Positions 1,248-3,725 of a stretch of DNA of 5,037 nt are shown here, in pieces; position 1 is the stretch's first letter; every line of letters starts with the position of its first letter. This DNA is from a virus (Duplodnaviria; Heunggongvirae; Uroviricota; Caudoviricetes), in the IMG/VR virus record IMGVR_UViG_2548877009_000019. One strand, 5' to 3'. The translations under genes and the position numbers were made by a program. The notes beneath the pieces were generated by a model. The model worked only from the letters and a program-made list of their open reading frames with translations, did no database searches and had not been told where the DNA came from.

Positions 1248-1263
1248 CAGTATGCGCATACTG
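1248..1263. promoter_or_regulatory. Perfect 16-bp palindrome CAGTATGCGCATACTG just downstream of the int stop codon; candidate protein-binding site
   Basis: Read directly: the sequence equals its own reverse complement. The T-runs lie 5' of it on the plus strand and A-runs 3' of it on the minus strand, so it is not an intrinsic terminator on either strand. Confidence 0.3.
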
Positions 1264-1278
1264 GATAAGTGCACAGAT

Positions 1279-1313
1279 ACAACGTGAAACAATGTGCAAC
1301 AACGTGACACAAT
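1279..1313 (+). repeat. Two 15-bp direct repeats ACAACGTGA(A/C)ACAAT, 20 bp start to start; candidate recombinase or AlpA binding sites
   Basis: Copies at 1279-1293 and 1299-1313 differ at one position. The overlapping motif TGACACAATCA (1305-1315) recurs at 1535-1545 in the alpA upstream region. Confidence 0.5.
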
Positions 1314-1410
1314 CACGAACAAGAGGCCAAAAAGAATACAGATTTGTAAGTTACTGATTTTTAATGCTCAGCTGGTTTTTTATACATTAGTGAATTACGC
1401 GTTAAAGCGT

Positions 1411-1450
1411 GCGAAAAAAGGCATAAAACAAGATTTTATGCCTTTGTATT
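1411..1450. terminator. Bidirectional intrinsic-terminator-like hairpin between int and alpA
   Basis: Perfect 9-bp stem GGCATAAAA / TTTTATGCC (1420-1428 and 1434-1442) with 5-nt loop. Followed by TTTGTATT on the plus strand and by TTTTTTCGC on the minus strand (complement of 1411-1419). Stem is AT-rich, so strength is uncertain. Confidence 0.45.
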
Positions 1451-1514
1451 AACATGAATTTAAATGATTTTATCCTGATTGTTCCTCTTTCTGTAAACCA
1501 TGCGACACCAACAT

Positions 1515-1543
1515 TTGCCAACTCTGAATCATCCTGACACAAT
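1515..1543 (+). promoter_or_regulatory. Candidate sigma70 promoter for alpA (TTGCCA, 17-bp spacer, CACAAT)
   Basis: Hexamers read from the sequence about 60 bp upstream of the alpA start. The -10 matches consensus at only 4 of 6 positions and overlaps the TGACACAATCA repeat. Confidence 0.25.
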
Positions 1544-1604
1544 CAGACACATCCCAACGCAATAGAACACGAAATAACTCTTTAAGAAACGAAAGGGGGC
1601 AATA

Positions 1605-3264: not shown

Positions 3265-3290
3265 CTTGTTAATGCAAGGTACAGAAAAGA

Positions 3291-3356
3291 CGAAACCCCG
3301 CAGTGCTGGAACACATACGGGCTTCTAACCAACAACGTAAACTAGGAGCCGTTATG
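3291..3356 (+). repeat. Leader module copy 2: hairpin AACCCCG / CGGGCTT (17-nt loop), CTAACCAA, Shine-Dalgarno AGGAG, ATG (3354)
   Basis: About 90% identical to copy 1 over roughly 40 bp. Outer stem positions differ from copy 1 in a way that keeps pairing (A-U pairs replacing G-C pairs) with one internal mismatch. Confidence 0.7.
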
Positions 3357-3537
3357 GTTGCTGTAAATCATATACCACACCTTGTACACACACAAACTGC
3401 CTTTGTGTGGCGTTTTCTGGCACTGAATATCGGAGAAAAAAACCAGTTGATCGCCAGTGTCGAAAATAGCTATGATTCCCGCGCACCTCATAAAACGGGT
3501 GCCGGGATTGGCGTCCTGGGCAAAACTGAAGCGCATA
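3354..3537 (+). other. P3-paralogous short ORF (MVAVNHIPHLVHTQTAFVWRF...) with no in-frame stop before the 3538-3560 terminator; leader peptide or decayed paralog
   Basis: Good Shine-Dalgarno (AGGAG). N-terminal roughly 30 codons are paralogous to the 3723-3911 ORF with several synonymous differences. The frame runs without a stop through the terminator to 3911, so the 202-aa track ORF is unlikely to be one real protein. Confidence 0.3.
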
Positions 3538-3560
3538 ACACGCGCCCCGCGTGTTTTTTT
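3538..3560 (+). terminator. Strong Rho-independent terminator (ACACGCG-CCC-CGCGTGT followed by a T-run)
   Basis: Perfect 7-bp GC-rich stem (3538-3544 and 3548-3554), 3-nt loop, T-tract through 3560. Plus-strand specific. Lies inside the 3303-3911 track ORF and upstream of the small-ORF operon. Confidence 0.75.
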
Positions 3561-3657
3561 GTGCCGCATAGTCACACCTTATCAATGGTGGGCTGTACGG
3601 GGGCGGAGCAATCCGCGCCGGTTTCTTCAGTGTCCGGTTACGCCAACCCTGTACAGT

Positions 3658-3725
3658 CCGCCACCAGCGAAATTGGCGTTTCCGGTGGCGGTTATCTTAA
3701 CCACACTGAGGAGGCTGCCAACATG
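3658..3725 (+). repeat. Leader module copy 3: hairpin CCGCCACC / GGTGGCGG (18-nt loop), TCTTAACCAC, Shine-Dalgarno GAGGAGG, ATG (3723)
   Basis: Perfect 8-bp stem at 3658-3665 and 3684-3691. Same architecture and spacing as copies 1 and 2 but with a completely different stem sequence. Confidence 0.6.

Follow-up and report, generated by a model that had tools for sequence, protein, structure and literature searches.

Introduction

Excisionases typically bind tandem direct repeats placed one helical turn apart, and several of them also act at promoters (PMC7498355, PMC11963761), as is the case for Apl, Cox, RdfS and Vis (PMC7498355, PMC11963761, PMC7286903). In the operators of 186 Apl and P2 Cox, several direct repeats with a spacing of 10–11 bp form an array, found at the att site and at promoters, and a small DNA-bending protein of relaxed specificity binds them cooperatively in a head-to-tail manner (PMC7498355). 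The X1-X1.5-X2 sites of lambda Xis are also phased and head-to-tail, and they lie beside an Int arm-type site, where a bent microfilament is formed (PMC7498355). RdfS of ICEMlSymR7A is a winged-helix excisionase that binds attP as well as its own promoter, linking excision with transcription (PMC11963761).

AlpA is the master switch of Gram-negative PICIs. In EcCICFT073, EcCIEDL933 and EcCIMP1, which belong to the same element family as the island described here, AlpA stimulates its own expression, and induction and excision depend on it. For EcCICFT073 it was reported that AlpA turns on the promoter of its own gene and sets off both excision and replication (PMC6092414), and excision of EcCIMP1 and of the Vibrio PICMI also needs AlpA (PMC11773190, PMC10803314). 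A Pint-lacZ fusion of EcCICFT073 gave no response to AlpA (PMC6092414), and transcription in the Vibrio PICMI was unchanged by it (PMC10803314). The literature searched maps no DNA-binding site for AlpA, whereas the array presented below is a predicted one.

Phage P4 has the integrase family and the AlpA/Vis family in common with this island. Int and Vis of P4 both act on Pint (PMC7286903), Vis being described as a repressor of Pint and of the late promoters. In the P4 genome record, the 'attP arm sequence repeats' are annotated as tandem 12-mers in both arms.

The DNA analyzed here, referred to as the window, is a stretch of 5037 nucleotides from a virus of the class Caudoviricetes (IMG/VR record IMGVR_UViG_2548877009_000019). 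In the initial annotation, the repeats between int and alpA were said to resemble arm-type or regulatory binding sites for integrase, excision or AlpA-type proteins. As shown in the following sections, they have the features of protein-binding sites of a recombination and regulation system, for which an excisionase of the AlpA type fits best, but the integrase arm-type part of that reading was not supported.

Island Context and Boundaries

The left end of the window is the int gene from its first codon, followed by a 374-bp spacer and then alpA. The int gene (1–1230, + strand) encodes a P4-family tyrosine integrase of 409 aa with Pfam matches to Arm-DNA-bind_3 (7.5e-18), which identifies the N-terminal part as an arm-DNA-binding domain, and to Phage_integrase (4.7e-17). 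On the 3' side of alpA, small divergent genes, isrK/C4-type RNA genes and Icd-like genes are found. The genome of E. coli JNE120442, where int is also annotated as an integrase, matches the window at 99.9% identity, and the window sequence is there the left end of a ~15.7-kb island located between roxA and phoQ. According to the JNE120442 annotation, the island carries repA, ssb, perC, major capsid, protease, portal, connectors, HNH, terS and terL genes, and tail genes are absent from it. The element is a capsid-forming PICI: int and alpA point in the same direction at its left end, it has modules for replication and for capsid/packaging, and att repeats flank it. Its gene layout is the same as that described for EcCIEDL933 (bioRxiv 10.1101/2022.09.08.507074).

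The att core was expected upstream of the window, and it was found there. In the matching genome, the core, GGACATATTT, precedes the start codon of int by ~180 bp, and a second copy is present at the right end of the island. The empty junction rebuilt from the two flanks was recovered at full length in 4823 of 5426 complete E. coli genomes, with 100% identity in the best-matching records, confirming the island boundaries.

A 10-bp-Phased Array in the int–alpA Spacer

Two 15-bp direct repeats had been noted in the spacer, and both are real: ACAACGTGAAACAAT at 1279–1293 and ACAACGTGACACAAT at 1299–1313 are identical at 14 of 15 positions, and their starts are 20 bp apart. The description was nevertheless incomplete, since both repeats belong to a five-unit array at 1273–1322 (+ strand), which reads ACAGATACAA / CGTGAAACAA / TGTGCAACAA / CGTGACACAA / TCACGAACAA and has the consensus CGTGRAACAA. 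The ACAA core recurs at 1279, 1289, 1299, 1309 and 1319, giving five units at exact 10-bp spacing, and Tandem Repeats Finder reported a period-10 array at 1279–1312/1322. Besides the two 15-bp repeats, the array contains the first copy of the 11-mer TGACACAATCA. Runs of at least four units were not obtained in 300 dinucleotide shuffles of the window, and the shuffle mean for runs of at least three units was 0.003. An excisionase operator array is expected to have at least three direct repeats about one helical turn (10–11 bp) apart, and this is the arrangement found at 1273–1322. The array is situated on the 3' side of int, ~190 bp upstream of the alpA −35 hexamer.

A coding origin of the array was considered and rejected. 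The two ORFs that overlap it (1294–1452 on the + strand and 1122–1322 on the − strand) cannot be conserved, because 10- and 11-bp indels occur among relatives. The spacer array is real, functional-looking and conserved.

Conservation among Related Islands

A search of 5426 E. coli genomes recovered the int–alpA spacer in 878 of them, with identities of 70–100%. Since a scan of species-representative genomes with AlpA led to three loci, only one of them close, an IMG/VR scan with an AlpA alignment was used instead; the set of relatives comprised 72 loci with this AlpA type, containing 54 distinct spacers. Conservation of the repeats in related islands, which the initial annotation had proposed as a check, was clear: the array, with three to six units, is kept in 71 of the 72 loci and in 53 of the 54 distinct spacers. 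In the class with a gap-free alignment, variation affects 2 of 20 columns of the ACAA cores versus 13 of 24 columns between the cores (Fisher p = 0.003). The number of units differs by whole 10-bp steps, with one variant carrying exactly one extra 10-bp unit, and the spacers of the EcCICFT073 type have six units. The array is kept between spacer classes that are only ~70–80% identical. Spacers of CFT073 and of the O157:H7 island with the EcCIEDL933 gene layout can be aligned to the window, and the array is present in them.

At greater distance, divergent islands (AlpA 50% identical, spacer not alignable) have a looser CGAAC-type phased run located 120–160 bp upstream of alpA. When the unit subtype (TTGTTYCAC versus TTGTTCGNN) was compared with the AlpA type in three lineages, covariation was weak, since AlpA variants only 50–55% identical are still found beside TTGTTC-type arrays. 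No comparable array precedes alpA in islands of the L011 and L087 types, which have an extra gene or a Xis gene before alpA.

Two of these arrangements deserve description. Where an additional DUF6387 gene separates int from alpA (L011, 13940–13970; L092, 2040–2085), a hairpin with a GC stem and a T-run stands directly before the alpA start codon; the promoter-like spacer is absent before alpA, which suggests that the gene is reached by read-through. In L087 (2100–2240), which has an unrelated 475-aa integrase, a separate Xis-like gene overlaps the alpA start, and a different repeat, AATCCAGWTTT / AACCAGATAT, is found upstream of alpA in place of the ACAA array.

Arrays Elsewhere in the Island and Putative Integrase Sites

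The 14-mer ACAACGTGAAACAA, allowing up to one mismatch, gave five matches in the 29-kb locus, all of them non-coding and within the island: one in the attL arm, two in the int–alpA spacer, one in the perC–capsid spacer and one in the attR arm. Runs of at least three TTGT/ACAA cores at 9–11 bp spacing occur at the same four places and nowhere else in the 29 kb, compared with 0.047 runs expected. The spacer array and the one before the capsid gene have five units each, while attL has four and attR three, and the spacer array has the opposite orientation to the other three. The capsid-side array begins directly after the perC terminator. In the stretch from this array to the capsid gene, the promoter scan gave no consensus sigma-70 promoter, in keeping with a promoter that depends on an activator.

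Both att arms have the same module, composed of a 10-bp-phased array and two tandem 12-mers, GGTGTAGTTAAT GGTGTAGTYAAT. In attL, the four-unit array is directly upstream of the 12-mers, while in attR the three-unit array is 13 bp from them. Array units within an att site, next to the arm-type sites of the integrase, are also a property of excisionase arrays, and the arms of this island present it. The comparison with the att sites that had been suggested initially placed the unit in both arms; together with the array upstream of the capsid operon, its retention in nearly all relatives and the contrast between core and non-core positions, this supports the part of the first reading that concerns protein-binding sites for recombination and regulation.

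The 12-mers GGTGTAGTTAAT are confined to the two arms and none is found in the int–alpA spacer, the sole other match in the locus being one with two mismatches inside int. They are unchanged in islands whose Int N-terminus is 78–99% identical, they are of the GGTGTAGTCAC type at 77% identity, and in an island where the N-terminal 100 residues of Int are 59% identical, they become GTGTGGTCAGTT, also in two copies. Since the 12-mers track the Int N-terminus and mirror the arm repeats of P4, they are putative integrase arm-type sites, and the 10-bp arrays would be left for a second protein. In addition, a TTGTTC array is retained upstream of the capsid gene in an island whose 475-aa integrase is unrelated and which has a Xis-like gene of its own, indicating that the array is not tied to the integrase.

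For these reasons the integrase arm-type part of the initial annotation is not supported. The motif that follows the arm-binding domain of Int is the 12-mer, and its absence from the int–alpA spacer argues that the spacer repeats are not integrase arm-type sites. Moreover, such sites are expected within ~200 bp of the core, whereas the attL core is at 11820 and the spacer array at 13273 of locus L001, a distance of ~1.45 kb.

Replication-origin iterons were also rejected as an explanation of the array, since the repeats after repA are of the AAAAGTGAG type and unrelated to CGTGRAACAA. These iteron-like repeats, AAAAGTGAG(G/T)AG, are present three to five times in the interval that follows the helicase gene, downstream of repA (L001, 18507–18720), and this region is probably the replication origin of the island. 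Another repeat was observed at the right island end (L001, 27005–27045), with four GTGAC units at 10–11 bp spacing: CGTGACGGAGA GTGACAACCA GTGACACACC GTGACAAAAA. They are located ~110 bp past the last island gene and ~15 kb beyond the window start, and are also found in L004 and L010, though not in all relatives. These units have the GTGA half of the array unit in common, without ACAA, and could be a pac/cos site or a site for another protein.

The alpA Promoter, the Hairpin and the Palindrome

A sigma-70 promoter for alpA is predicted at 1515–1543 (+ strand), with a −35 hexamer TTGCCA (1515–1520), a 17-bp spacer and an extended −10 element TG-n-CACAAT (1535–1543). The −35 hexamer is invariant in all relatives, the −10 hexamer is CACAAT in one promoter class and AACAAT in the other, and the spacer is always 17 bp. 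Recognizable hexamers separated by 16–18 bp and conserved in relatives are expected of a sigma-70 promoter, and the predicted alpA promoter has them.

As initially described, the 11-mer TGACACAATCA is exactly repeated at 1305–1315 and 1535–1545, and its second copy overlaps the predicted −10 (CACAAT at 1538–1543, TG at 1535–1536). No other 11-mer of the 374-bp spacer is repeated, and at least one repeated 11-mer is present in ~4% of shuffled spacers. The −10 hexamer forms the 3' end of a unit-like motif in both promoter classes (CCTGACACAAT or GGGAACAAT), with more degenerate units at 10-bp steps. In the window, these promoter-proximal unit-like repeats extend over 1533–1572 (+ strand) in a 10-bp register and read CCTGACACAA / TCAGACACAT / CCCAACGCAA / TAGAACACGA, where CCTGACACAA contains the second TGACACAATCA copy and the −10. 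In the other class, GGGAACAAT ends in AACAAT and is followed 10 bp later by CGACACAAT. Since the −10 ends a unit-like motif in both classes, the second copy is most simply read from its sequence as primarily the extended −10 element of the predicted promoter. It resembles unit 4 of the array, and weak occupancy by the same protein may also occur.

About 20 bp upstream of the −35, the TTCTGTAAA box (1489–1497, + strand) is invariant in 23 aligned spacers and in every listed variant. It is a candidate site for the helper-phage inducer or for a host factor.

A hairpin is located between the array and the alpA promoter (1417–1452, + strand), with a 12-bp stem formed by arms at 1417–1428 and 1434–1445 and followed by the tail TTTGTATT. 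The stem is kept in 66 loci, where nearly all substitutions in the arms still allow pairing of the + strand when G-U pairs are counted, and in most variants folding of the − strand is clearly weaker. The tail is a weak U-tract, and the scan for consensus terminators made no call. The only Rfam match in the spacer was a sub-threshold one to BSnc120 (27 bits versus a threshold of 114), which corresponds to the hairpin. The structure is probably the terminator of the int transcript, in which case the array would be in the int 3' UTR, with a terminator between the array and the alpA promoter.

The perfect 16-bp palindrome CAGTATGCGCATACTG at 1248–1263 was confirmed. Two perfect palindromes of this length are present in the window (1248–1263 and 2505–2520), versus 0.07 expected. 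The palindrome at 1248–1263 is perfect in 43 of the 72 related loci, the variants being single uncompensated substitutions. It is absent from all class-2 spacers (EcCICFT073 and islands at abgR-smrA), which do not have its right half because the array begins there. With 2 of ~16 columns variable compared with 5 of 15 in the adjacent spacer, it is not clearly more conserved than its surroundings. Its absence from a whole class of related spacers, that of EcCICFT073 included, weakens the initial view that it is part of a binding-site arrangement; it is lineage-specific and seemingly dispensable, and may be a site of this lineage or an RNA stem. The second perfect palindrome, ATGTGTATATACACAT at 2505–2520, lies just upstream of a minus-strand YlcI/YnfO-like gene (2298–2477) and is a plausible operator of the immunity/regulatory region of the island.

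AlpA as the Proposed Binder

The alpA gene (1605–1793, + strand) encodes a 62-aa winged-helix protein of the regulator/excisionase family (Pfam Phage_AlpA, PF05930, 5e-18). A comparison with PDB sequences gave a match to 8c3t, annotated as 'GIsul2 transposon excisionase', which was also the best fold match of a single-sequence AF2 model with pLDDT 87 (TM 0.79, 39% identity). A literature search on this PDB entry returned nothing relevant. The other fold matches were RdfS, Pukovnik Xis, TorI and MerR-type winged helices. An excisionase array is further expected in an element that encodes a small winged-helix protein of the excisionase type; AlpA is such a protein, and no other Xis-like family was found among the island proteins.

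The Pseudomonas AlpA antiterminator was rejected as a model. That protein is larger, with a C-terminal HTH at ~residues 128–142 and a ring-forming N-terminal segment, whereas the AlpA of the window has only 62 residues and belongs to Phage_AlpA, so that the name alone is common. The ABE element GGGACG, a 6-bp sequence placed between −35 and −10 for the Pseudomonas protein, was not found in the spacer.

On balance, we lean towards the array at 1273–1322 being an excisionase-style operator array with AlpA as its binder, and AlpA binding is the most economical reading of the data. What the analysis shows is the array itself, the non-random way in which it is distributed, the pattern of its conservation and the class of fold to which AlpA belongs; from them we infer the identity of the binder and a transcriptional effect of its binding. 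AlpA monomers would bind the five head-to-tail 10-bp units cooperatively, one per helical turn, and would bend the DNA. At the arrays beside the integrase arm-type sites in both att arms, AlpA would work as an excision factor, and at the array that follows the terminator ahead of the capsid/packaging operon, it would be an activator. The spacer array, together with the weaker unit-like sites over the −10, would mediate the positive autoregulation reported for alpA after the helper-phage trigger.

Several observations stand against this assignment to AlpA. The distance of ~190 bp between the array and the −35, with a probable terminator in between, is unusual for a simple activator site. Covariation of the array with AlpA is weak, and islands of the L011 and L087 types do not have an array before alpA. 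Finally, neither the EcCICFT073 Pint fusion nor transcription in the Vibrio PICMI was affected by AlpA, and an array is present just upstream of int in EcCICFT073, the island whose Pint fusion ignored AlpA.

The proposed operator can be compared with the described ones in more than its phasing. Apl and Cox do not belong to the AlpA family, and their promoter arrays occupy the region between lytic and lysogenic promoters that face each other, with repression as the effect. Here, the array is ~190 bp before the promoter of the regulator itself, activation is what has been published for the regulator, and arrays flank the Int sites in both arms. The Xis sites of lambda are in one arm only, and they have not been described as acting on a remote promoter from which the excisionase is expressed. 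RdfS binds without a clear consensus motif, as pre-formed oligomers held through an extra N-terminal helix, whereas a clear 10-bp unit is present here. P4 has a similar layout, in which its only four-unit, exactly 10-bp-phased TCC run adjoins the int-proximal 12-mers, but the TCC-based units are unrelated to the ACAA units of this island, vis is far from int, and no array is annotated downstream of int. The TCC run (L093, 3974–4006) is the only one of its kind in the P4 genome and is a candidate Vis site.

The general picture of excisionase-type proteins is unchanged by these results. The array is a further case of a well-known type of element, which makes it a useful prediction for PICIs and not a surprising one. 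It predicts a dual role of AlpA as excision factor and activator of the capsid operon, and the occurrence of CGTGRAACAA at four defined places provides concrete sites to mutate and footprint. The array also helps to delimit the att arms of P4-family islands in genome annotation.

Alternative Explanations

The arm sites P'1–P'3 of lambda are also tandem and phased, and the 10-bp units of the island could be arm-type sites for the N-terminal domain of Int in the same way, with the spacer array used for regulation of Int itself or of alpA. Int has an arm-DNA-binding domain, each att arm contains an array, and the Int protein of P4 is a repressor of the promoter from which it is expressed (PMC7286903). 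However, the 12-mers are the better candidates for Int arm sites, being restricted to the arms, following the Int N-terminus and mirroring the annotated arm repeats of P4, while the capsid-side array persists with an unrelated integrase and the spacer array is 1.45 kb away from the core; this role of Int is improbable. It is unlikely that the binder is some other protein, whether a helper-phage factor, another island protein (PerC, YlcI/YnfO or Ash/Icd-like) or a host nucleoid protein. The example of a helper factor would be the helper's own Xis/Cox-type protein, by analogy with P2 Cox, which acts on phased boxes at the late promoter of P4. The region near this P4 promoter contains three phased 10-bp repeats that agree with the Cox-box consensus in reverse complement. 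It is a helper function that switches on alpA (PMC6092414), and cross-talk of excisionases between elements has been reported (PMC11773190). On the other hand, arrays in both att arms beside Int sites point to an excision factor of the element itself, these islands use a variety of helpers (lambda, phi80 and others) while conservation of the unit goes with the island, and no host-factor consensus is evident in the array. A combined scheme by analogy, itself improbable, would make the array, possibly with the TTCTGTAAA box, the cis element through which helper phages switch on alpA, a Cox-type protein of the helper nucleating on it and AlpA then autoactivating. If true, one family of repeats would link the sensing of a helper to excision and to the expression of capsid genes in capsid-forming PICIs.

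Action of the array as RNA, for example as a CA-rich element of the int 3' UTR for mRNA stability or translation or for binding of an RNA chaperone, is very improbable. The array does lie between the int stop codon and the terminator-like hairpin of the + strand, but its units have the opposite orientation in the att arms and in the capsid spacer, where the array follows a terminator, and the strict 10-bp phasing and the whole-unit indels are features of the DNA helix. Lack of any function would mean that the array is either a degenerating duplicate of an att arm or a repeat produced by slippage, and that the palindrome and the 11-mer repeat arose by chance. The 11-mer repeat is indeed only marginally unusual (p ~0.04) and the palindrome was lost in many relatives without compensation; the array, however, is found in 71 of 72 loci with conserved cores and varying inter-core bases, across spacer classes that are ~70–80% identical, and we give an origin without function hardly any credence. 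The operator array for AlpA is the reading we retain.

Other Features of the Window

A 75-bp direct repeat, 84% identical, is present at 2230–2304 and 2915–2989, and a 28-bp direct repeat at 2534–2561 and 3282–3309. From these repeats, a block containing a small minus-strand YlcI/YnfO-type gene and its leader is seen as a tandem duplication, the copies being ~685–750 bp apart.

Rfam matches above the gathering score were obtained for isrK (66 bits) at 3483–3559 and for C4 antisense RNA (77.6 bits) at 3581–3668, and a weak match to the a1/b1 target was found at 3470–3522. The isrK and C4 matches correspond to a P1/P4-style antisense RNA immunity module, located upstream of an Icd-like gene. Between ~3322 and ~4328, the window shows an apparent one-base shift relative to the 99.9% identical genome, which points to paired single-base indels, the second of them within a G-run, and may alter the calls of the Ash/Icd-like ORFs. 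The Ash gene is marked as a pseudogene in the JNE120442 genome record.
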